Positions 4,742-14,867 of a stretch of DNA of 64,000 bases are shown piece after piece. Each line of letters begins with the position of its first letter. The first letter of the stretch is position 1. The notes under the pieces are model-generated. The model did not search any database, had not been told where the DNA came from, and worked only from the letters and a program-made list of their open reading frames with translations. This DNA comes from a bacterium (GTDB taxonomy: Bacteria > UBA8248). The stretch lies in contig OZ253442.1 in the NCBI GenBank assembly GCA_965261085.1, forward strand, positions 1,536,001 through 1,600,000. The letters are read 5' to 3'. The position numbers and the translations under genes were made by a program.

Positions 4742-5524
4742 ATGAACGCGCCCGAATCGGCGGGTATGAAGGAAAAGGTGGTTTTGGTGACGGGCGCCTC
4801 GCGCGGCATCGGCGCCGCCATTGCGAGGCGCTTCGCGCGCGAGGGCGCGCACCTGGTCTTGAATCACAGGAACGAGAGAGGCCGGTCCTCCCAGATGGCG
4901 GCTGAGCTTTGCCGCGAGGTCGAAGCCGCCGGGGGACGGGCTGTCGCCGCTCCTGCGGATATTTCAAAGAAAAATTCCGTCAAGACTATGTTCACGCAGG
5001 TGGAGGAGGAGTTCGGGCGGCTCGACGTGCTTGTCTTAAACGCGGCGCGCGCGCCGTTCAAGCCGTGGGAAAAACTCCTCGAGCGCGATCTCAAACTGCT
5101 GGTGGAGACGAATTTTCTGGGCAACGTCTTCTGCCTGCAGGGGGCGCTTCCGCTGCTTTCGCGCCAGGGCGGAGCCATCGTGTTCATTTCGAGTCTGGGG
5201 AGCCGTTTTTATAGTCCCGAATACCCGCTGGGGCCCATGAAGGCGGCCATGGAGGCCGCGGTCAGGCATTGGGCTGAGAGTTTCGAGGAGAGAGGCGTGT
5301 CGGTCAACGCCGTCTGCGCAGGGTTGGTGAAGACCGATTCGTTCAAGACGCTGCGCATGATTCAGCCGGAGTTGGACGCATTGGACGAACGATATTTCGT
5401 GACGCCGGAGGAAGTGGCCGAATCGGTCTATTTTCTAGCCGGAGCGGGCGCGGCTTCCATACGGGGGCAGACCCTCGTGGTCGACAGGGGACTCAGCAAC
5501 CGCCTGAACCGCCCTCCGGGGTGA
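4742..5524 (+). CDS. SDR, FabL-like enoyl-ACP reductase
   Basis: TGASRGIG, NAA, ISSLGS and a Y-PLGPM-K spacing (not the FabG YxxxK); first gene of the FAS-II-like cluster. Confidence 0.75.
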   Translation: MNAPESAGMKEKVVLVTGASRGIGAAIARRFAREGAHLVLNHRNERGRSSQMAAELCREVEAAGGRAVAAPADISKKNSVKTMFTQVEEEFGRLDVLVLNAARAPFKPWEKLLERDLKLLVETNFLGNVFCLQGALPLLSRQGGAIVFISSLGSRFYSPEYPLGPMKAAMEAAVRHWAESFEERGVSVNAVCAGLVKTDSFKTLRMIQPELDALDERYFVTPEEVAESVYFLAGAGAASIRGQTLVVDRGLSNRLNRPPG

Positions 5525-5659
5525 TGGAACGGGGGAGATTCTTCGGGAGCGGTTGATTTTCGCTCCCCTCCTTGGTTGTATACGCTTGAATGCGTGGGGA
5601 ATTTCGCGCGTGGCCTGAGGGAGGATGGACAGCGCGCTTGATCGTTACAGAGGAAAGCC

Positions 5660-6223
5660 ATGTCGCAAAACCTGGTATCAGACGATACGATTTTAGAAGA
5701 AGTGAAAAAGGCAATCGCCCACACCACGGGAATCGATGAGGAAACCATCGAGCCGGACAGTTCCCTGGTGGATGACCTGGGCGTTTTGTCTCTCGATTTT
5801 CTGGACGTGAACTTCCGCCTCGAGCAGGTGTTCGGCATCAAGATGGCGCGCAATTTCGTTTTGGAGCACGTGGAGGAAATGTTCGGCGAGGGCGTGGCCA
5901 TCAACGAGGAGAGCGAGGTGACGGAAAAGGGTGTCGAGGTCTTGAAGCTGCGCCAAAGCGAAGCGGCTGTGGATCTGGAGCCCGGAACCCCCGTGGATGA
6001 GCTTCCGGCCCTCGTAACGCCGAAAACGCTGGCGGGCGCGGTGCGCGACGTGCTGAACTGCCTGCCCGAGAAGAGCCCGGCGGGGGCGGAGTGGACGACC
6101 GAAGATGGAACGCGCATCGTATGCGCGAAGACGAACGAGCCTGCCTCTTTGCCCAGCGGGGATGAAGTGGTTCAGAACTGGTTGAACCGGGTGGAAGAGG
6201 AAAGAGGCCTCTTCTCCTCCTGA
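5660..6223 (+). CDS. Extended acyl carrier protein (AcpXL-like core, 187 aa)
   Basis: DDLGVLSLDFLDVNFRLEQVFGIK phosphopantetheine helix; about 100 residues longer than a standard ACP. Confidence 0.85.
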   Translation: MSQNLVSDDTILEEVKKAIAHTTGIDEETIEPDSSLVDDLGVLSLDFLDVNFRLEQVFGIKMARNFVLEHVEEMFGEGVAINEESEVTEKGVEVLKLRQSEAAVDLEPGTPVDELPALVTPKTLAGAVRDVLNCLPEKSPAGAEWTTEDGTRIVCAKTNEPASLPSGDEVVQNWLNRVEEERGLFSS

Positions 6224-6267
6224 GGCCGCTGGCTTCATCCAAGTCATTTTACCGGGAGAACGCCTGA

Positions 6268-7578
6268 ATGGCCGGTAGCGACAGACGGGTCGTGATCACC
6301 GGATACGGGGCGATGACGCCTCTGGGCGGGGACGTCGCCTCCACGTTCGACGCCGCGCGCGAGGGACGCTCCGGAATCGACGTGGTCCGGCGCTTCGATC
6401 CCGAAAAACTCCCCTGCCGAATCGCCGGTGAGATAGAAGACGAGTGGCTCGCCTCCCAGGAGAACGGCGGCGGACGCAGGCTCGACAAATTCTCCACCCG
6501 GGGCGTGCGCATGATGCGCGTGGCCGTATCCCAAGCGGCCCGGGCGGCGCGCTTGGGTGAGGTTCCGGAGAGAAAGCGAGTCGGCGTCGCGCTCGGTTCC
6601 CACGGCGATCACCCCCAGGTCGAAGAATTGCTCCGCATCTTTCCCTACTGGAGGCCCGCGGATGGCGACCCCCTGCGGGGCGGGTGGGACATCAAGGAAC
6701 TCAAAAGCCGCGGCGTCTATGATCTGATGACGTTTTTCAGAAGAAAATCCGACGTGGCGACCTCGGTCGTCGCTCTCGATTTCGACTGCCGGGGTCCCAC
6801 GGTTTCCATCTGCTCGGCCTGCGCGGCGGGAGCGCAGGCGATCGGCGAGTCGGTGCGTCTCATCCGCGACGCGAAGGCCGACGTCATGGTGGCGGGCGGC
6901 TGCGAGTCGGCCATCACCTACGTGGGGTTTCTCGGGTTCGTCCTGCTCACCGCGCTCGTGGAGAGATACGAAACCCCCCAAAGCGCGTCTCGTCCCTTCG
7001 ACAGGAGGCGAAACGGCTTCGTGATGTCCGAAGGCGCGGGCGCGTTGATACTCGAGAGCTACGAGCACGCGCGCGCGCGCGGCGCCGAGATTCTGGGCGA
7101 AGTGCTCGGCTACGGCGATTCCTCGGATGCCTTTCGCATCACCGACATGCACCCGAGGGGGCTGGGCGCGGTGTTCGCCATGAAAAAGGCGCTCGAAGAC
7201 GCGGGCGTCGCCCCCGGTGGCGTCGAATACATCAACGCGCACGGCACCTCGACGCCCAAGAACGATTCCACGGAGACCAGGGCCATCAAGGAGGTGTTCG
7301 GCGCCCATGCGGAGAGGATACCCATCAGCTCCAATAAATCCATGATCGGCCACACCATCGGCGCGGCCGGCGCCATCGAGGCGATTCTGGCCGTCGAGGG
7401 GATGCGCCGCTCGGAAATCCTGCCGACCATCAACTACCAGAATCGCGACCCCAAGTGCGACCTCGACTACGTGCCCAACGAGACGAGGGCGCAGGCCCAT
7501 CGCGTGGCTCTCTCCAACAGTTTCGGTTTCGGTGGGCAGAACGCCTGCCTTTGTCTGGGCGGCCCCGAGATCGCGTGA
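6268..7578 (+). CDS. Beta-ketoacyl-ACP synthase (FabF-like) 1, intact Cys-His-His
   Basis: SACAAG, INAHGTST, GHTIGAAG and NSFGFGG. Confidence 0.93.
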   Translation: MAGSDRRVVITGYGAMTPLGGDVASTFDAAREGRSGIDVVRRFDPEKLPCRIAGEIEDEWLASQENGGGRRLDKFSTRGVRMMRVAVSQAARAARLGEVPERKRVGVALGSHGDHPQVEELLRIFPYWRPADGDPLRGGWDIKELKSRGVYDLMTFFRRKSDVATSVVALDFDCRGPTVSICSACAAGAQAIGESVRLIRDAKADVMVAGGCESAITYVGFLGFVLLTALVERYETPQSASRPFDRRRNGFVMSEGAGALILESYEHARARGAEILGEVLGYGDSSDAFRITDMHPRGLGAVFAMKKALEDAGVAPGGVEYINAHGTSTPKNDSTETRAIKEVFGAHAERIPISSNKSMIGHTIGAAGAIEAILAVEGMRRSEILPTINYQNRDPKCDLDYVPNETRAQAHRVALSNSFGFGGQNACLCLGGPEIA

Positions 7579-8765
7579 AGTTCTCGCCCCTCCCCATCAC
7601 CGGGGTCGGCCTGGTAACGGCGGCGGGATGTGGCGTCGAACCCGCCTGGGAGGCGCTTTGCGCGGGCCGCTTCCTTCTCGCCTTAGACGCAGACCCCGAA
7701 CTCGCCGGTTTTCCTCCCATCGAAACGGCGCGGTGCGCGCGGATCGACCCCGAATCCATCGGCGCGGACCGCCGTGCGGCGAGAATCATGGGCCATCACA
7801 CCCACATGCTCCTGGCGGCGGTTCACGATGCGCTGGCGGGCGCTCCCGCCGCCCTGGAGATGGCCGGGGAGGAGGTCGCCTTTTTCGCAGGCATGGACTC
7901 GGTCGATCCGGGGAGCGATGAGCTGCTCGGCGCGGTGAGGGAATCGGGGGGCCGGGCGGACCTCGGGCATTTCTTCCGCGAGGGGATGGACGGCATCCCT
8001 CCCTTATGGCCGCTCGGCTTGCTGAACGCGATAGGCTTCAGCCAGGTGGCGATTCAGCATGGCTGGCGCGGCGAGAACGCCGTTTTCAGCGCGGGTGCGG
8101 AGGCGACGGCGCGAGCCGTCTGCGAGGCGGCGGACTCCGTGGGGACGGGCAAGGCGAGGCTCGCTCTTGCCGCCGGCGTGAGTGGGGTGATTTCCCCCCG
8201 GATGCTGGCCCGCGCGGCGCGGCGGGGCGTCTGGCCCCAAGCCGGGGGGCTGGGCGAGGGTGCGGGGGTGATTCGTTTCGAGAAGCCTGAGGATGCCGAT
8301 CCGTCCAAAATACTTGGTTGGCTCAAGGGTTATTGTTCCGTTCGCGCGCTTAAAAAACGAGGCGGCCTCGCCCGGGCGATTCAAAAATCGGCCCAAGGCG
8401 CGCTCGCAAGTGCTGGTCTCGCGCCCGGGGAGGTGGACCTCCTCGTGCTTCATGGGGAGGGGGAGTCCCGGGCGGATGACGCGGAGGCGGAAACAATTTC
8501 CGCCATTTTCGGGTGCCACAAACCTTGGGGGCTTGCGACGAAGGGCATATTCGGCCACCTTTGGGGGGGGAGTCCGGCGCTGGACTTGATCATGGCGCTG
8601 AGAGCGTTGGCGGAAGGCGGGGCGCTCCCGGCTCCCGGAATGATGGAGAATTTGTTTCGCGGCGCGGCGCATGTGCCCGGTCGGGACGAACTGCAAAACG
8701 CGCTCGTGCTTCTGCAGGGCTTCGACGGCGTATGCGCAGGCTTCGTCGTGGGGAAAAACGCTTGA
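7575..8765 (+). CDS. Ketosynthase-fold protein lacking catalytic Cys (chain-length-factor-like)
   Basis: GTGA overlap with KS1. GENAVFSAGAEA aligns to GPTVSICSACAA with Ala at the Cys position; HG and GH motifs remain. Confidence 0.8.
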   Translation: MKFSPLPITGVGLVTAAGCGVEPAWEALCAGRFLLALDADPELAGFPPIETARCARIDPESIGADRRAARIMGHHTHMLLAAVHDALAGAPAALEMAGEEVAFFAGMDSVDPGSDELLGAVRESGGRADLGHFFREGMDGIPPLWPLGLLNAIGFSQVAIQHGWRGENAVFSAGAEATARAVCEAADSVGTGKARLALAAGVSGVISPRMLARAARRGVWPQAGGLGEGAGVIRFEKPEDADPSKILGWLKGYCSVRALKKRGGLARAIQKSAQGALASAGLAPGEVDLLVLHGEGESRADDAEAETISAIFGCHKPWGLATKGIFGHLWGGSPALDLIMALRALAEGGALPAPGMMENLFRGAAHVPGRDELQNALVLLQGFDGVCAGFVVGKNA

Positions 8766-8780
8766 CGGGAGAACGGGAAA

Positions 8781-9233
8781 TTGCGGTTTCTCTTTTTCGA
8801 TCAGATCAAGGAAGTGGTGCGCGGCGAGCGCATCGTGGGCGTCAAGACGTTTCCACTCTCGGAAGCGTATCTGAACGCCCATTTCAGTCGCGCTCCCCGG
8901 GTGCCCGGCTCTATCCTGATAGAGGCGATGGCGCAGATTACGGGGTGGCTCGTGGTCTACACGCATGATTTCAAGACCTCGTGCGTCATCTCGCTCATCG
9001 ACGACGTGGAGGTGGCGAGCGACCTGCGCCCGGGGGTGTCTTTGGAGATTCATGGCGAGATAATCGATACGAACGAACGGGCGAGCCTGTGCCGCGCGAG
9101 GATCGAAAAAGACGGCGTCCCCGTGGCCAAAGCGGAGCGGTTCGTCTATCCCCATTTTCCCAACGATGACCCCGACGGCCTAAAAGAGCGCTTCAGGAGC
9201 TATGGCTGGCTGGAGTTCGAGGCGAGCCCATGA
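8781..9233 (+). CDS. FabZ-like 3-hydroxyacyl-ACP dehydratase 1
   Basis: HFSRAPRVPGSILIEAMAQ hot-dog His/Glu motif. Confidence 0.88.
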   Translation: MRFLFFDQIKEVVRGERIVGVKTFPLSEAYLNAHFSRAPRVPGSILIEAMAQITGWLVVYTHDFKTSCVISLIDDVEVASDLRPGVSLEIHGEIIDTNERASLCRARIEKDGVPVAKAERFVYPHFPNDDPDGLKERFRSYGWLEFEASP

Positions 9234-10495
9234 GCGCGCAGGTATTCATCACGGGTCTCGGCATGGTGACCTCGCTGGGCGCCGACGTGGAAACCTCGTG
9301 GCGACGTGCGCTGGCCGGTGAATCGGGCATCGCGCCGATAGAATCTTTCGACGCGAAGGCGCTGCCCATCGCCGGAGCAGGGGAGGTTTCAGAGGAAACG
9401 CTCCTCGCCATCAGGGAGAGGCTGCCCGAAGAATACGCGGGAGAGGGCGAGTGCAGGGTGTTGTTCGCGCTCGATGCCGCGCAGAGCGCGGTGGCCGACG
9501 CCGGGATGCGCCCCGGCGATTATGCGCCCGAGCGCGCGGGCGTGGTGATGGGAACCGGGCTGAGCAGCTACCGGCTGGAAGATTTTTCCGCCTGGGCGGA
9601 CCCGGAAAACGGTTTCGACGCCGCGCGCTTCGCCAGAGAACTCGACAAGACGCAAGTATCGGGCTACTTCAACAACCCGCCCGAGCGGGCGACGTCGAAG
9701 ATTGCGGAGTGGTTCGAACTCGGGGGCCCCACCGGCACCATCACCTCCGCCTGCGCGGCGGCGGGACAGGCGATAGGCCTCGGGATGCGCATGATCCGCA
9801 GGGGCGAGGCGGACGTGGTTCTTTGCGGCGGGGCCGATTCGATGATCCATCCCGTCGGGATGGCCATATTCCTCCTGCTGGGCGCCGCGTCAAAATCGAA
9901 AGACCCCGTTTGCCGCCCGTTCGACAGGAGACGCTCCGGCCTCGCCGTGGGCGAGGGAGCGGGCGTGGTGGTTCTCGAATCAGAAGCCCATGCGCGCAAG
10001 AGGGGCGCTGCGCCCTATGCCGCCCTGTCGGGCTATGGCGCGAGCATGGACGCCCACCAGGTGACGGCCCCCCACCCGGCGGGCCGTGGCGCAGTTCGCT
10101 CGATGAGCGAGGCGATAGAAGATGCGGGTCTCGCGCCTTCCGACGTCGTCTACGTCAACGCGCACGGCACGGGCACGAAACTAAACGATCCGGTCGAGAG
10201 CAGGGCGATCCGCGAGGTGTTCGGCGCGCGGGCGGATTCGCTGGCGGTGAGTTCTTCCAAATCCATGATCGGGCATTTGATAGCCGCCTGCGGCGCGCCC
10301 GAGTTCATCTTCACGGCCTTGAGCGTCGCGCGCGACATCGTGCATCCTACGACGAACCTGGAGAACCCGGACCCGAAGTGTAATCTCGACTACGTGGCCG
10401 AGGGGGCGAGAGAGATGCCCGTGCCCGCCGCCATCACGAATTCCTTCGGCTTCGGCGGTCAAAACGCCACCCTCCTCGTGAGAAAGGCGGCTTAG
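9230..10495 (+). CDS. Beta-ketoacyl-ACP synthase (FabF-like) 2, intact Cys-His-His
   Basis: SACAAA, NAHGTGT, GHLIAA and NSFGFGG. Confidence 0.93.
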   Translation: MSAQVFITGLGMVTSLGADVETSWRRALAGESGIAPIESFDAKALPIAGAGEVSEETLLAIRERLPEEYAGEGECRVLFALDAAQSAVADAGMRPGDYAPERAGVVMGTGLSSYRLEDFSAWADPENGFDAARFARELDKTQVSGYFNNPPERATSKIAEWFELGGPTGTITSACAAAGQAIGLGMRMIRRGEADVVLCGGADSMIHPVGMAIFLLLGAASKSKDPVCRPFDRRRSGLAVGEGAGVVVLESEAHARKRGAAPYAALSGYGASMDAHQVTAPHPAGRGAVRSMSEAIEDAGLAPSDVVYVNAHGTGTKLNDPVESRAIREVFGARADSLAVSSSKSMIGHLIAACGAPEFIFTALSVARDIVHPTTNLENPDPKCNLDYVAEGAREMPVPAAITNSFGFGGQNATLLVRKAA

Positions 10496-10520
10496 AGACT
10501 TAGAAGAAAGGTGATTCAGA

Positions 10521-11273
10521 ATGAAAATCGATTTAAGCGGAAAAATTGCGCTGGTGACCGGAGGCGGGCGGGGCATCGGACGCGCCTGCTGCACGGCCCT
10601 GGCCGAGGCGGGCGCTTCGGTGGCGGTCAACTACAGCCGCTCGGCCGAGGCCGCCGAGGAAGTGAAACAGGAGATCGAGTCAGCCGGCGGCAAGGCGCTC
10701 ACCTACCAGGCCGACGTTTCCTCTTATGAGGAGGTGACGGCGATGTTCGATAAGGTGAAGGAGGATTTCGGCACGCTCGACATCCTGGTGAACAACGCGG
10801 GCGTCATCCAGGACGGTCTGCTGCTCACGATGAAGCCCGCCGGCTGGCGGAAGGTCATCGGCGTAAGCCTGGACGGCGCCTTTCACTGCACGAAGGCGGC
10901 GGGCGAGATTATGTTCAGAAAGCGTTCCGGCAAGGTGATCAGCATCTCCTCGGTCATGGGAGTCTCGGGCGGGGCCGGGCAGACGAACTACGCTTCCGCC
11001 AAGGCGGGCATCATCGCCTTCATGCGCGCCTGCGCCGCCGAAATGGGAAAACGGGGTATTCAGTTCAACACCATTTTGCCGGGGATGATCGTCACCGACA
11101 TGAGCGAGCGCGTGCGCGAGAAGGGTGGAGACGTGATTTTAGGGCGCATACCGGCTGGCCGCTTTGGTGAACCCGAGGACGTGGCCAGGCTCGTGGTGTT
11201 CCTGGCTTCGGCGCAATCGGATTACATCACCGGTCAGGCGATAGCTGTGGATGGCGGCCTGCTTACCGGCTGA
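10521..11273 (+). CDS. fabG: 3-oxoacyl-ACP reductase
   Basis: TGGGRGIG, NNAG and GQTNYASAK. Confidence 0.88.
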   Translation: MKIDLSGKIALVTGGGRGIGRACCTALAEAGASVAVNYSRSAEAAEEVKQEIESAGGKALTYQADVSSYEEVTAMFDKVKEDFGTLDILVNNAGVIQDGLLLTMKPAGWRKVIGVSLDGAFHCTKAAGEIMFRKRSGKVISISSVMGVSGGAGQTNYASAKAGIIAFMRACAAEMGKRGIQFNTILPGMIVTDMSERVREKGGDVILGRIPAGRFGEPEDVARLVVFLASAQSDYITGQAIAVDGGLLTG

Positions 11274-11292
11274 AGGCGGAGGAGTTTTGGGG

Positions 11293-11709
11293 ATGCGGCT
11301 GTACCAGGGGGTGGATTTGGTGGAGGTGGCGCGCTTGAAGGAGGCCTACGAGCGTCACGAGGCGTTCGGCGAAGACGTGTTCACGGAAGCCGAGCGCGCC
11401 TATTGCTTGAAGCGCCGCAATCCCTATCCCCATTTCGCGGCCCGCTTCGCGGCGAAAGAGGCCTGCCTCAAGGCCTTCGGACTCGGTCTTTCCGAACCGG
11501 GCGGGCTGGGCGGTCGAGGCCGTCTGCGCGAGATCGAAGTGGAATCGGCGGCCTCGGGCAAGCCCACGCTCAAGCTGAGCGGTTCGATGGAGCGCATGAG
11601 CGCGAGAAAGAAGATCACCCAGTCCACCATTTCGCTGAGCCATACGCTGGAGTTGGCGGTGGCCCAGGTGATTCTCTTAAGCGATGACGGGCCGGAAGAA
11701 ATCGGCTAG
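11293..11709 (+). CDS. acpS: Holo-ACP synthase (phosphopantetheinyl transferase)
   Basis: GVDLVE, FTEAE, ARFAAKEA, GKP and SLSH; start after GGAG at about 11281. Confidence 0.92.
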   Translation: MRLYQGVDLVEVARLKEAYERHEAFGEDVFTEAERAYCLKRRNPYPHFAARFAAKEACLKAFGLGLSEPGGLGGRGRLREIEVESAASGKPTLKLSGSMERMSARKKITQSTISLSHTLELAVAQVILLSDDGPEEIG

Positions 11710-11721
11710 GGGGTTGTTCGT

Positions 11722-12174
11722 TTGAGATACATGCTCGTGGACAGGGTGATGGCGTGGGAGGCGGGAGCCTCCATACAGGGGGTGAAGAACGTCACGATGA
11801 GCGAGGATTTTCTGGAGTTTCACTTTCCCCGGTTTCCCGTCATGCCGGGTGCGATGATATTCGAGGGTCTCGTCCAGCTTGCCGGCTGGCTCGAGGCGGC
11901 GGGCTCTGATTTTGCGAACTGGATTCTTTTGGAAAAGGTTCGCAGCGTCAGGTACTATGGATTCGCCTTTCCGGGGGATCAGGTCCTCCTGAACGTGGAG
12001 GCGCGGGGAGAGGAAGAAGGACTCAGGAATTTCAGGGGTGTGGCCACCGTGGAGGGGGAACGCCGGGTGGTCGCCGATTTTGGGGCAAAGGTGGTGCGGC
12101 TTGCGGATTACGAGGATCCTGAAGAGCAGCGTCATCATTTTCGTGTTCTCGGCCGCGAGATTCGGTTGAGTTAG
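11722..12174 (+). CDS. FabZ-like dehydratase 2
   Basis: LVDRV, KNVT and HFPRFPVMPGAMIFEGLVQ. Confidence 0.9.
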   Translation: MRYMLVDRVMAWEAGASIQGVKNVTMSEDFLEFHFPRFPVMPGAMIFEGLVQLAGWLEAAGSDFANWILLEKVRSVRYYGFAFPGDQVLLNVEARGEEEGLRNFRGVATVEGERRVVADFGAKVVRLADYEDPEEQRHHFRVLGREIRLS

Positions 12175-12186
12175 GCGGGATGACCG

Positions 12187-13485
12187 ATGCGAGGCGCGGA
12201 TGTGTGGATCACGGGCGTGGGGTTGCTGACTTCTGTGGGCGAGAGCGCCCCGGAGAACTGGGAAGCGTTTCGCGCCGGCAGAAGCGGCGTCGCCTATCAT
12301 CCAGGCGAGGAGAACGACTCTTTTCCGGATAATTTCTTCTACCGTGGCGCAATCCCCGGCCACGAAGACCCGCCCGAGGTGCCGCCCAGACTCGCGAGCC
12401 AGCGGAAATTCCTGAACAGAAGCTCCATCCTGGGGCTTTACGCGGCGGCGGAAGCGGTGGCTTGCGCCGGCCTCGACATAGGGGAGGTGGCGCCCGAGAG
12501 AAAGTCCCTCTATGTGGGCGCCGGCGATTTCACGCGGGTGGGCTATGTGGATTTCTACGCGGCGCTCAAACAGACCGCCGGCGAGGCGTGGGATGTACCG
12601 AAGCCTGAGTCCCTCAACGAAGCGGCGCTCCACAAGGTAAGCCCTTTTTTCCTGCTCGAGGGCCTGCCGAACAATCTGTTCAGCTATCTATCTGCCATGT
12701 ACGAATTCATGGGGCCGAACGGCAGCTTCTCCAGCCTTTCTTCGTGCGGCGCGCAGGCGCTCGAGAATTGCGACCGCGTGCTTCGCTTTGGGGAGGCCGA
12801 TGTCGGCCTGATCGTAGGTTGCGGAAGCTGGGCGCACCCCGTGATGCTTCTGGAACTGGACGGCCTGGGTATTCTCTCCCGGGCGAAAGATGGTCCTGCG
12901 TCGTTTCGGCCTTTCGACAAGAGGCGCGATGGATTCTTCCCCGGAGAAGGGGCCGCCGCCCTGGTGCTGGAGAGCGCCGAATCCGCCCGGGCGCGGGGCG
13001 CGAAGCCCCTGGGCCGCGTCATCGGCGCGGCGAATTGCCAGGAATTCTCCTCTGAGCGCTATATTCCCGTTCCAACTGGAGCGGTGCGCCATTCGGTGGA
13101 ATCGGCCATGGCCGAGGCGGGCCTCGCGCCCGATGATCTGGCTTTCATCCTTCCCCACGGGAGCGCGACGCCCCAAGGAGACGCGGGCGAATTGTCCGCC
13201 TTGCTCTCGTATTGCGGCGAAGCGAAAGGCGCGATTCCGCTCGCGGGCTGGAAGCCCTATACGGGACACATGGGCTCCGCCAGTGATTTGAGCGAGATGA
13301 TCCTGGGGCTCTCCGCCCTCAAAGACGGCCGCCTCCCGCCCACGCCGGGTTTGGAGCAAAAAGACGATGCGTTCGAGGCCCTCCACATCCCCACCGAAGA
13401 ATGCGCCGTCGCGGGGGCTGCGTTCTTGTCCTTGAGTCACGGCATCGGCGGGCAATCCTCCGCAACCATCGTCGCCGCGCAGTGA
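12187..13485 (+). CDS. Ketosynthase-fold protein, Cys->Ser variant with both His
   Basis: GPNGSFSSLSSCGAQA has Ser at the catalytic position and Cys displaced +2; HGSAT, GHMGSA and RPFD are present. Confidence 0.85.
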   Translation: MRGADVWITGVGLLTSVGESAPENWEAFRAGRSGVAYHPGEENDSFPDNFFYRGAIPGHEDPPEVPPRLASQRKFLNRSSILGLYAAAEAVACAGLDIGEVAPERKSLYVGAGDFTRVGYVDFYAALKQTAGEAWDVPKPESLNEAALHKVSPFFLLEGLPNNLFSYLSAMYEFMGPNGSFSSLSSCGAQALENCDRVLRFGEADVGLIVGCGSWAHPVMLLELDGLGILSRAKDGPASFRPFDKRRDGFFPGEGAAALVLESAESARARGAKPLGRVIGAANCQEFSSERYIPVPTGAVRHSVESAMAEAGLAPDDLAFILPHGSATPQGDAGELSALLSYCGEAKGAIPLAGWKPYTGHMGSASDLSEMILGLSALKDGRLPPTPGLEQKDDAFEALHIPTEECAVAGAAFLSLSHGIGGQSSATIVAAQ

Positions 13486-14468
13486 ACAAATCCGGGAAAC
13501 CCAAAAAGAGAAGGCGGAGCAAAGACAAGGGCGCATTTCACCAATGGGTGGAATACGCCGTACTCGTCTCGTTTCTGAAGCTGATTCGCCTGCTGCCCTA
13601 CGGGGCTTGCCGCGCCGTCGCCGCCGTGGCGGGAGAGGCGATTTTCCGGTTCGCTCCCAGGAGAAGGCGCATCGCGCGGGCCAACCTGCGCATTGCCTTT
13701 CCCGAACTCGACGAGACGCAGCGCCTGGTTCTGGCGAGGCGCAGTTGCCGTTCGTTCGTCCTCACCTGTCTGGAGGGTGCGAAGTTTCTCTATCGCTTCG
13801 AGCCGCGACGCGCAGAGGAGACGATGCGCGAGATCGTGGACGGGGCGGAGGAGATGTTCGAAAAGGTGCGCGCGGTTCACGAAGACGCGGGCGGCTGTGT
13901 GTTCGTCGTGCCGCATTTGGGGAACTGGGAGTGCCTCGCCCATGCCGGCGCGCTGGCGGGGATTCCGCTCACCATACCCGTGCGTCCCCTGGACAACCGG
14001 AAGCTCGAAGCCTTGCTGTATGAAATGCGCGCGTCCTCCGGGCAGGAGATACTCGCCAAGAAAAACGCTTTCTTCCATCTGCGCGAGGCGCTGCGCAAGG
14101 GTCGCTCGGTGGCGATTCTGGCGGACCAGAACGCGGGCGGCGAGGGGATAGACGCGCCGTTTTTCGGCAAGCCCGCCAGGACGACGCCGGCCCCCGCCGC
14201 GCTCGCGGTTTTGTACAACCGGCCCATCGTGCTGATTTCGTGCCTGAGAAAAGGGGATGGCCGGCGCTATGAGATATTGGTGAGCGAACCGGTAGTCCCC
14301 GATATGGATGCGCAAAGCGCGAAGGGGGAAATCGAGAGGCTCACGAGGGCGGTGAACGAGGAGACGGAAAATTTCATACGGAAAGGGCCGGAGCAGTACC
14401 TATGGATACACGACAGGTGGAAACTCACCAAAAAAGTAGGACCCGCGCGTTGGGCCGACTCAAATTGA
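13482..14468 (+). CDS. Lipid A acyltransferase family (LpxL/HtrB/LpxXL-like)
   Basis: HLGNWE (H-x4-E), RPLDN, ILADQ, FFG and PEQYLWIHDRWK; GTGA overlap with the upstream KS. Confidence 0.9.
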   Translation: MNKSGKPKKRRRSKDKGAFHQWVEYAVLVSFLKLIRLLPYGACRAVAAVAGEAIFRFAPRRRRIARANLRIAFPELDETQRLVLARRSCRSFVLTCLEGAKFLYRFEPRRAEETMREIVDGAEEMFEKVRAVHEDAGGCVFVVPHLGNWECLAHAGALAGIPLTIPVRPLDNRKLEALLYEMRASSGQEILAKKNAFFHLREALRKGRSVAILADQNAGGEGIDAPFFGKPARTTPAPAALAVLYNRPIVLISCLRKGDGRRYEILVSEPVVPDMDAQSAKGEIERLTRAVNEETENFIRKGPEQYLWIHDRWKLTKKVGPARWADSN

Positions 14469-14867
14469 GGATTGAGAGGGAGAGGCGGTTTCTTCCAGGT
14501 GCATGAAGAAGGGGACGCCCAGTTTCTTCAGTTTCGCCTCGATCTTTTCCGTGCAATCGCAATCGCCGCAGACGGGATAGCCCTCGCAATCTTCGAGTTT
14601 TCGGGCGAAGCGCACGTCGATTTCCTCGAAATACGCCTCCCAGTAGGGCAGTTCCTCGTACAGTTCATAACCCGGCCCGAACGCCTCGCGGCAGTAGCAG
14701 ACCTCAAGCCAGCGGACCTCGCCCTCGGTCGTGAGCCTCGCATCTTTCATGCATTTCAGGAAAGTTTTATGCGCGATGGAGCCGCGCCCGAGTTCGCCCG
14801 ATTCGATGGCTTCGAGCAAGGCGGCGCTTTTCCCATCGATGACTTTTCCGCGCACCAGATATCGCAT
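14460..14867 (-). CDS. Hypothetical protein with Cys motifs
   Basis: GGAGG SD upstream; CYC and C-x5-C-x2-C-x-C motifs. Confidence 0.75.
   Translation of the reverse strand: MRYLVRGKVIDGKSAALLEAIESGELGRGSIAHKTFLKCMKDARLTTEGEVRWLEVCYCREAFGPGYELYEELPYWEAYFEEIDVRFARKLEDCEGYPVCGDCDCTEKIEAKLKKLGVPFFMHLEETASPSQSSI

Follow-up and report, generated by a model that had tools for sequence, protein, structure and literature searches.

The question raised by this locus is what an uncultured, Nitrospinota-like bacterium makes with a second set of fatty acid synthesis genes that ends in a lipid A-type acyltransferase, and which lipid receives the product. The locus lies in a stretch of 64,000 nucleotides, referred to as the window (contig OZ253442.1, positions 1,536,001 to 1,600,000 of the forward strand, assembly GCA_965261085.1), and comprises the eleven plus-strand open reading frames (ORFs) at window positions 4742–14468 (Table 1). 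In order, these encode a FabL-like short-chain dehydrogenase/reductase (SDR), an enlarged acyl carrier protein (ACPx), the ketosynthase (KS)-type proteins KS1 and KSA, a dehydratase (DH1), a further ketosynthase (KS3), the ketoacyl reductase FabG, the holo-ACP synthase AcpS, a second dehydratase (DH2), a fourth ketosynthase-type protein (KSS), and an LpxL-family acyltransferase. Pfam and NCBIfam searches recovered in every gene the domain that had been named in an earlier note made from the DNA alone.

It is our reading, held with a probability of about one half, that ACPx serves a second, segregated fatty acid synthesis line as the carrier on which a special acyl chain, probably a long one, is built, and that the LpxL-type enzyme places this chain on lipid A. 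Such a pathway would parallel the rhizobial AcpXL/LpxXL pathway in function, without being a member of that family. We infer the length and modification of the chain, its acceptor, the roles of KSS and KSA, and the pairing of the ketosynthases.

Conservation and natural variants of the operon

A profile scan with one genome per species gave 400 candidate stretches, of which 212 encode a relative of ACPx, and the best 80 loci were analyzed, being screened by tblastn with the proteins of the window only. These loci carry the labels Nitrospinota, Tectomicrobia, Nitrospirota/Thermodesulfovibrionia, NC10, and Syntrophobacteraceae, with one locus each from Chloroflexota and Desulfobacteraceae. The downstream gene order was counted in the 59 loci whose sequence continues for 8.8 kb or more past the ACP gene, the other 21 being too short. 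All nine following genes occur in the order of the window in 35 of these loci, KS1 alone stands behind the ACP gene in 14, KSA and KS3 are missing in two, and eight are otherwise partial. Because 35 of 59 related loci share the order, the gene arrangement is not due to chance, and the proposal of a conserved lipid-building operon with an enlarged ACP, two pairs of ketosynthase and ketosynthase-like protein, two dehydratases, and an LpxL-type end is borne out.

Among the 51 genomes of the phylum, ACPx is present in 36, all of them in one family of 42 genomes, and within this family the FabL-like SDR is present in exactly the 36 genomes that have ACPx. In families f2 to f4, ACPx is found in none of the nine genomes and PF03279, the family of the LpxL-type enzyme, in all nine. 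The site is also preserved in relatives that have lost most of the operon. In G034, a 98% complete genome of the same genus, the PAC2-family gene is followed by FabG, AcpS, a 74-aa dehydratase-like remnant, and LpxL, and then by the small ORF, glgA, glgC, and M3-like gene. Two genomes of the small-genome genus g8 have FabG-AcpS-LpxL and the small ORF. In G034 and three g8 genomes, housekeeping FabF alone was found. This shows that the eight accessory genes (SDR, ACPx, KS1, KSA, DH1, KS3, DH2, and KSS) are a unit that is inherited together and lost together. The natural deletion variants part the housekeeping genes from the accessory ones and define a clean eight-gene set.

It is clear that the remaining three genes (FabG, AcpS, and the gene of the LpxL-type acyltransferase) have a housekeeping role in the lineage. 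The earlier proposal of a self-contained operon does not hold, given that relatives without the other eight genes retain precisely FabG-AcpS-LpxL in the same place. AcpS is the sole PF01648 match in the 4.27-Mb genome, and it scores above the cut-offs of its family models (TIGR00516, 64.0 versus 59.8; TIGR00556, 78.5 versus 45.35; PF01648, 58.4 versus 25). FabG reaches 244 on NF009466 (cut-off 222) and 287.8 on TIGR01830, just under the cut-off of 297.75, compared with at most 247.4 for the other SDR paralogs on the latter model (11 of 47 tested), and its Tyr151 and Lys155 are kept in 46 of 48 orthologs. A separate housekeeping operon, plsX-fabH-fabD-acpP-fabF, contains no fabG, and together with a separate fabZ it stands elsewhere in the genome, in keeping with the earlier idea of a dedicated line beside the housekeeping type II fatty acid synthesis (FAS-II) genes. 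The supposition that the operon has a ketoreductase and a phosphopantetheinyl transferase of its own does not stand, given that AcpS is the only PF01648 match, that FabG is missing from the housekeeping operon and scores best on the FabG equivalog model, and that both are kept after the accessory genes are lost. An AcpS inside an operon of this kind need not be a dedicated activator, and that idea is corrected here.

The LpxL-type protein is likewise the sole PF03279 match in the genome, with 180.4 bits against a cut-off of 22.3, and stays below the cut-offs of the LpxL and LpxM equivalog models. Its H-x4-E motif, which aligns with H132/E137 of Escherichia coli LpxL, is kept in 43 of 43 orthologs. 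PF03279 is present in 49 of the 51 genomes of the phylum, as a single copy in 48 and with a weak second match in one; two genomes have none.

The operon also occurs in split and reduced forms. In five genomes the ACPx locus consists of SDR-ACPx-KS1 only and the rest lies elsewhere, with KSS adjoining LpxL in five of five. The second locus of G052 reads KSA-DH1-KS3-FabG-AcpS-DH2-KSS-LpxL, and G051 has FabG-AcpS-DH2-KSS-LpxL only, with no ortholog of KSA, DH1, or KS3 recovered by the window queries. A form with nine genes, from which KSA and KS3 are missing, occurs at three Syntrophobacteraceae loci. Taken together, KSA and KS3 are missing jointly in four variants; SDR, ACPx, KS1, DH2, and KSS form a constant core, and KSA and KS3 come and go together. 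The earlier suggestion of a two-stage elongation fits these variants, with a core line and an optional KS3:KSA stage.

A locus from an uncultured delta proteobacterium (L064, a metagenome-assembled genome, MAG) shows many short frames across KSA, KS3, FabG, DH2, and KSS, and this broken operon is more likely a product of assembly indels than of decay.

The carrier protein ACPx

The genome encodes two ACPs, AcpP beside FabF and ACPx. Ser44 of ACPx is invariant in 81 of 81 sequences. The family comprises 120 proteins at E ≤ 0.001, of 102–328 aa and nearly all of 180–191 aa, from MAGs labeled Nitrospinae/Nitrospinota, Tectomicrobia, or Nitrospirae. In the structure model (pLDDT 90.4, built from a 43-sequence alignment), the ACP fold occupies residues 2–137, of which the carrier-protein matches align only about 80; therefore, the four-helix fold carries an insert at about residues 76–111. 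The C-terminal extension forms a β-hairpin with strands at 145–155, followed by a helix at 167–182. The Foldseek and VIA matches cover residues 2–138 only, with none over residues 139–187.

In distant relatives from Nitrospirota, NC10, and Syntrophobacteraceae, a CxxC...CxxC pattern surrounds the hairpin (alignment columns ~140–165), which likely forms a zinc ribbon. The clade of the window has kept one of these four cysteines, and the hairpin is still present in the model. By both sequence and Foldseek, the closest solved relative of ACPx is the Rhodopseudomonas palustris 'specialized acyl carrier protein RPA2022' (2kw2/3lmo), which we take to be an ortholog of AcpXL.

The ketosynthase-type proteins

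Orthologs from the 80 related loci were aligned to the E. coli proteins, with numbering of FabF Cys164 that counts Met1. At this position, the four ketosynthase-type proteins of the window have Cys, Ala, Cys, and Ser, in agreement with the earlier claim of one Cys-to-Ala and one Cys-to-Ser replacement. The Cys-His-His triad of condensing enzymes is present in KS1 and KS3 and not in KSA and KSS. KS1 keeps Cys/His/His/Lys in 77 of 77 orthologs and shares 42% identity with the FabF encoded elsewhere in this genome, and KS3 keeps Cys/His/His in 48 of 48. In KSA, which reaches only 74.7 bits on the FabF model, the position of the active-site cysteine is occupied by Ala in 32, Pro in 13, Ser in four, and Gly in three of 52 orthologs. 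In KSS the replacement by serine is invariant (42 of 42), with His/His/Lys kept in all 42. Judged by these residues, KS1 and KS3 are active FabF-type ketosynthases and KSA is catalytically dead.

The position of FabF Phe134, which we take from KS/chain length factor (CLF) structures to line the acyl pocket at the dimer interface, is Gly or Ser in 48 of 48 KS3 orthologs and Trp in 52 of 52 KSA orthologs. This suggests that the acyl pocket of a KS3:KSA pair would be lengthened. On the basis of co-variation, KS3 is predicted to pair with KSA, and KS1 with KSS.

A quick maximum-likelihood tree of 68 rows, drawn from the window and 18 of the 80 loci and completed with FabF and FabB of E. coli, the FabF of this genome, ApeO, and ApeR, resolves KS1, KS3, KSS, and KSA each as one clade with a support of 100, and the KS1 clade spans phyla. 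Because each forms a single clade, the four paralogs are older than the spread of the operon. None of the four falls inside FabF, FabB, or Ape.

The KSS ortholog of a 3.0-Mb genome of the same genus is split over two frames near residues 150–169 (L017:16546–17837; also G023:C1:853930–854717), which is either a frameshift toward loss or an indel error of long reads.

Dehydratases and the probable FabL-like enoyl reductase

The catalytic His and Glu of FabZ are kept in DH1 (54 of 54 orthologs) and in DH2 (52 of 52), and DH2 is present in all reduced variants of the operon. For the SDR, the top model is NF005975 (FabL), at 190.8 bits and below the cut-off of 328, and the top PDB match is 3oic, an enoyl-ACP reductase [NADPH], with 131.9 bits versus 107.6 for the runner-up. 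In 78 of 78 orthologs, the tyrosine of FabG-type (classical) SDRs is replaced by leucine, and a tyrosine aligns with FabI Tyr156, again in 78 of 78. This residue pattern points to an enoyl reductase rather than a ketoreductase.

E. coli FabI found as its best match in the genome the operon's own SDR, and no FabI elsewhere. A FabK-like gene reaches 152.8 bits against a cut-off of 453, and the same query had no match in five relatives; for FabV there was no match in the genome, a result of no weight since the control genomes were equally silent. Three further SDRs of the genome are ordinary. As a separate observation, no housekeeping enoyl-ACP reductase was recognizable outside the operon in the genome of the window (G000) or in its relatives G023, G034, G042, G043, and G045, and relatives without the accessory genes are also without the FabL-like SDR.

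The operon could in principle be the main fab operon, with the extra dehydratase–ketosynthase pairs supplementing bulk synthesis, for example as an O2-independent unsaturated branch like FabA/FabB or FabN/FabO. The coupled pairs DH1-KS3 and DH2-KSS would fit this, as would the presence in the operon of the genome's only AcpS, its best FabG, and its only enoyl reductase (ER)-type SDR. Yet bulk synthesis has no need of a separate enlarged carrier conserved across phyla, two of the four ketosynthase-type proteins are without the catalytic cysteine, and relatives drop all eight accessory genes while keeping FabF, FabG, and AcpS. We therefore regard this explanation as quite improbable.

Comparison with known systems

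The literature searches brought up no description of this operon. The earlier statement that the cluster matches neither the acpXL nor the aryl-polyene (APE) gene set agrees with the Pfam and NCBIfam results and with BLASTP against the Ape proteins of E. coli CFT073.

The top NCBIfam models for ACPx and for the acyltransferase are NF005079 and NF005120, which we take to describe AcpXL and LpxXL, respectively, and NF005076 and NF005084 presumably describe the FabF proteins of the acpXL cluster. The scores place none of the four proteins concerned in AcpXL, LpxXL, FabF1XL, or FabF2XL, given that ACPx reaches 51 bits (cut-off 83), the LpxL-type enzyme 142.6 (cut-off 273), KS1 336 on NF005076 (cut-off 629), and KSS 77.8 on NF005084 (cut-off 320). 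The rhizobial cluster is acpXL-fabZXL-fabF2XL-fabF1XL-adhA2XL-lpxXL, and the length given for its fabF2XL, 1197 bp, fits the 397-position profile (PMC11901934). On that gene list, the rhizobial system, which provides the 27-OH-C28 chain of lipid A, and the operon share a dedicated ACP, a FabZ-type dehydratase, a FabF pair, and an LpxL-family enzyme, all co-oriented. They differ in that ACPx is twice as long and has the insert and the hairpin domain, and in that the operon has four ketosynthase-type proteins and two dehydratases versus two and one. The operon has a dedicated ER-type SDR and no Zn-type alcohol dehydrogenase, a domain of the kind expected for adhA2XL being found in none of its eleven genes, and the best FabG copy and the sole AcpS are embedded in it. 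The hosts also differ, being here Nitrospinota, Nitrospirota, NC10, and Syntrophobacteraceae.

In overall gene types, the operon resembles the APE cluster of E. coli CFT073, for which the assignment of the Ape names to the genes is our own: both contain a ketosynthase with a CLF, a further ketosynthase, two dehydratases, a ketoreductase, one or more dedicated ACPs, and an acyltransferase of the LPLAT type. This overlap, together with weak matches of the ketosynthase-type proteins to the cispentacin AmcF model, would be expected if the line were an APE-like or highly reducing type II polyketide synthase (PKS) whose product, a pigment lipid of polyene or hydroxylated type, is anchored in the outer membrane by the LpxL-like enzyme. 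However, BLASTP places every protein of the operon nearer to FAS-II proteins than to the corresponding Ape protein, the ketosynthases scoring higher against FabF, for which reason membership in the APE family was rejected. At E ≤ 1e-3, BLASTP gave no match of DH1 or DH2 to ApeI or ApeP, of KSA to ApeC, or of the LpxL-type enzyme to ApeD. Pfam searches found no starter ligase, thioesterase, methyltransferase, glycosyltransferase, LolA, or MMPL gene within 4742–14468, and no aryl starter ligase, thioesterase, methyltransferase, or export gene in the flanks (PAC2, glgA, glgC, and M3-like genes). Unlike the APE cluster, the operon contains a probable enoyl reductase, and the co-inheritance of the ER-type SDR argues for saturated chains. 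A pigment lipid is thus a very improbable product.

In type II PKS systems, an active ketosynthase pairs with a Cys-less KS-like subunit, and mycobacterial FAS-II (KasA/KasB, HadAB/HadBC, AcpM) uses paired dehydratase subunits and a larger ACP for long chains. The operon recalls both, with active ketosynthases beside a Cys-less partner, two dehydratases, and a large ACP. In contrast to these systems, KSA and KSS derive from FabF, each in a separate clade, and both dehydratases of the operon keep His and Glu; moreover, KSS has an invariant Ser, whereas CLFs have Gln.

In the biotin-linked DVU2558–2565 cluster of Desulfovibrio vulgaris, a specialized ACP is accompanied by FabF, FabG, and two FabZ-like genes (PMC10102598), a set that the operon shares. 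A line whose dedicated ACP carries the precursor of a cofactor, such as pimeloyl-ACP for biotin, could have this appearance. No BioC match above the cut-off was found in any of the 51 genomes of the phylum, which leaves such a pimelate route open. The Desulfovibrio cluster is, however, bracketed by bioF, bioA, bioD, and bioB (PMC10102598), whereas no bio genes lie near the operon, and bioB is about 1.08 Mb away. Nor does bioB vary together with the accessory genes, being present in 48 of the 51 genomes, including the accessory-free G034 and g8. Four ketosynthase-type proteins and a link to LpxL would also be unexpected for a C7 product. The biotin reading is disfavored, and a cofactor precursor in general is highly improbable.

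A possible link to lipid A

The genome encodes LpxC, LpxD, LpxA, LpxI, LpxB, and KdtA, with a cluster that reads bamA-ompH-lpxD-fabZ-lpxA-gnnA-like-lpxI-lpxB-DUF374-kdtA. In five of the 80 loci, in part of the Nitrospirota, SDR-ACPx-KS1 is immediately preceded by lpxD-fabZ-lpxA-lpxI-gnnA in the same orientation, and five further loci have a gnnA-like gene upstream of SDR-ACPx-KS1.

The divergence of LpxL was compared with that of FabG. The ratio of LpxL to FabG identity is 0.90–0.97 for carriers of the same genus and 0.80–0.83 for carriers at the family level. Where the accessory genes have been lost, it is 0.85 in G034 and 0.64–0.68 in g8, for which the same-genus and the family-level carriers, respectively, are those of similar divergence. 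This suggests that LpxL comes under different constraints after the loss, the disproportionate divergence being seen in just two lineages.

These observations bear on whether the chain goes to lipid A at all. The special chain could instead go to another lipid (a phospholipid, an ornithine lipid, or another glycolipid) or be a free product, with LpxL terminal only through the older FabG-AcpS-LpxL backbone. The survival of this backbone without the accessory genes is what would be expected in that case, as is LpxL being single-copy in genomes free of ACPx (in f2 to f4, as given above), and the operon has no other release enzyme to tie its product to LpxL. Against this stand the adjacency of KSS and LpxL, which overlap here by GTGA and remain neighbors even in split operons, the position of SDR-ACPx-KS1 behind the lpxD-to-gnnA block in part of the Nitrospirota, and the faster divergence of LpxL after accessory loss. 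Furthermore, no alternative acyltransferase was conserved in the 80 loci in the tblastn screen, which used the window proteins only. Transfer to another lipid therefore appears unlikely, yet it is an explanation to be taken seriously.

Two further observations concern the lipid A genes themselves. The DUF374 gene between lpxB and kdtA (L082:1401–2153; G000:C1:3845400–3846152) belongs to what we take to be the LpxJ family of lipid A late acyltransferases, in which case two families may each supply the cell with a secondary acyltransferase. A single uninterrupted ORF of 710 aa combines the LpxC domain (residues 438–706) with a receiver of the NtrC type and a sigma-54 AAA region (G000:C1:2592555–2594687; L083:4556–6688), which is either a regulator–LpxC fusion or two genes in the same frame.

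Proposed mechanism and its weighing

In the pathway that we propose, in which the chain is destined for lipid A, AcpS would activate AcpP and ACPx alike and malonate would be loaded by the housekeeping FabD. KSS, with its Ser and its conserved His-His-Lys, would prime by decarboxylation of malonyl-ACPx or would be a non-condensing partner of KS1. Each cycle would then consist of condensation by KS1, reduction by FabG, dehydration by DH2 (with DH1), and enoyl reduction by the FabL-like SDR, and since the SDR would reduce the enoyl group, the chain would be largely saturated. KS3 with the dead KSA could act as an optional, KS/CLF-like second stage that extends the chain. Finally, the LpxL-type enzyme would take the finished acyl-ACPx and add a secondary chain to lipid A.

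A more specific and tentative version, which we consider possible though on the doubtful side, is that the accessory genes encode a way of tailoring lipid A that has not been described before. A two-stage KS/CLF-type synthase would then build an unusually long or bifunctional chain on a zinc-ribbon carrier, and the KS-like protein with the Ser active site would serve as a priming decarboxylase or as an O-acyl shuttle to LpxL, a role new for FabF homologs. The hosts of such a system would be Nitrospinota-like bacteria from sponges and the sea, Nitrospirota, NC10, and Syntrophobacteraceae, and it would endow them with an as yet unsought outer-membrane chemistry.

Nonetheless, several points weigh against a lipid A pathway of this kind. 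G034 and g8 retain LpxL after the loss of the accessory genes, and LpxL could owe its position to an inherited FabG-AcpS-LpxL backbone, in which case that position need not mean that acyl-ACPx is its substrate. ACPx leans only slightly toward the AcpXL type by sequence (47.1 versus 43.7 bits), the VIA Z-scores of 9.5–10.6 are tied among many ACPs, an anammox ACP included, and all the models that we take to represent the acpXL cluster score far below cut-off. Given that the FabI, FabK, FabV, and SDR searches recognized no other enoyl reductase in the genome, the SDR may also serve bulk fatty acid synthesis here. The length of the chain is presumed, and none of the carriers among the 80 loci is a named cultured strain. 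The RNA-library contigs that cover the operon (see below) could stem from carried-over DNA.

If the lipid A pathway is correct, it would mean that several environmentally important, mostly uncultured lineages (among them nitrite oxidizers and their relatives, NC10 methane oxidizers, syntrophs, and sponge symbionts) decorate lipid A by means of a private synthase. The chain would affect outer-membrane rigidity, permeability, and recognition by host immunity, and might serve as a lipid biomarker. The ketosynthase homolog with the invariant Cys-to-Ser replacement and the hairpin-bearing ACP are also of enzymological interest in themselves.

Gene layout, transcription, and neighboring genes

The coordinates of the eleven genes and of the conserved neighbor are collected in Table 1.

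Table 1. Coordinates, in the window, of the operon genes and of the adjoining small ORF.
Feature	Position	Strand	Basis or remark
FabL-like SDR, probable dedicated enoyl-ACP reductase	4742–5524	+	top NCBIfam model FabL
ACPx, 187-aa acyl carrier protein	5660–6223	+	PP-binding domain at residues 14–70 only
KS1, FabF-type ketosynthase	6268–7578	+	ketosynthase domains
KSA, KS-like protein without active-site Cys, CLF-like partner	7575–8765	+	weak ketosynthase domains
DH1, FabZ-like dehydratase	8781–9233	+	FabA/FabZ domain, PF07977, 43 bits
KS3, second FabF-type ketosynthase	9230–10495	+	ketosynthase domains
FabG, 3-oxoacyl-ACP reductase	10521–11273	+	FabG models
AcpS, holo-ACP synthase	11293–11709	+	ACPS domain
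DH2, FabZ-like dehydratase	11722–12174	+	FabA/FabZ domain, PF07977, 63.4 bits
KSS, KS-type protein with Ser for Cys	12187–13485	+	ketosynthase domains
LpxL-family acyltransferase (Lip_A_acyltrans)	13482–14468	+	PF03279
Small ORF, 135 aa, Cys-rich C-terminal part	14460–14867	-	convergent; conserved neighbor

The coupling of the co-oriented genes by GTGA/ATGA overlaps, described in the earlier note, was found at three junctions: GTGA at 7575–7578 (KS1/KSA), ATGA at 9230–9233 (DH1/KS3), and GTGA at 13482–13485 (KSS/LpxL). The remaining intergenic gaps are of 12–44 nt, with the exception of the 135 nt between the SDR and ACPx. In three genes the start was moved from that of the longest ORF, to GTG 7575 for KSA, ATG 11293 behind GGAGGAG for AcpS, and GTG 13482 for LpxL. 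Consensus scans found internal promoters and terminators in the operon no more often than by chance (terminator-like sites, 13 versus 11.0 ± 4.5 expected).

Contigs from four metatranscriptome libraries of two studies cover 21–25 of 30 bins of the operon, and eight of the ten gene junctions are bridged by such contigs with few differences among the 32 of 293 pieces listed. The KS1/KSA and DH1/KS3 junctions are uncovered among these 32 of 293 pieces, and this lack of cover is given no evidential weight. High-depth bins and long 'joints' in the RNA contigs are cross-matches of conserved SDR and ketosynthase motifs from other organisms. The contigs are consistent with transcription of the operon and do not imply a single transcript.

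Upstream, the operon is flanked by a divergent PAC2-family gene, and downstream by the convergent small ORF, then glgA, glgC, and an M3-like gene. The small ORF, which matched no Pfam family, overlaps the lpxL stop convergently, and it adjoins lpxL in members of the family both with and without the accessory genes. At an NC10-labeled locus, a Condensation-domain protein (41 bits; L041:19224–20549) is encoded directly behind the LpxL-type gene.

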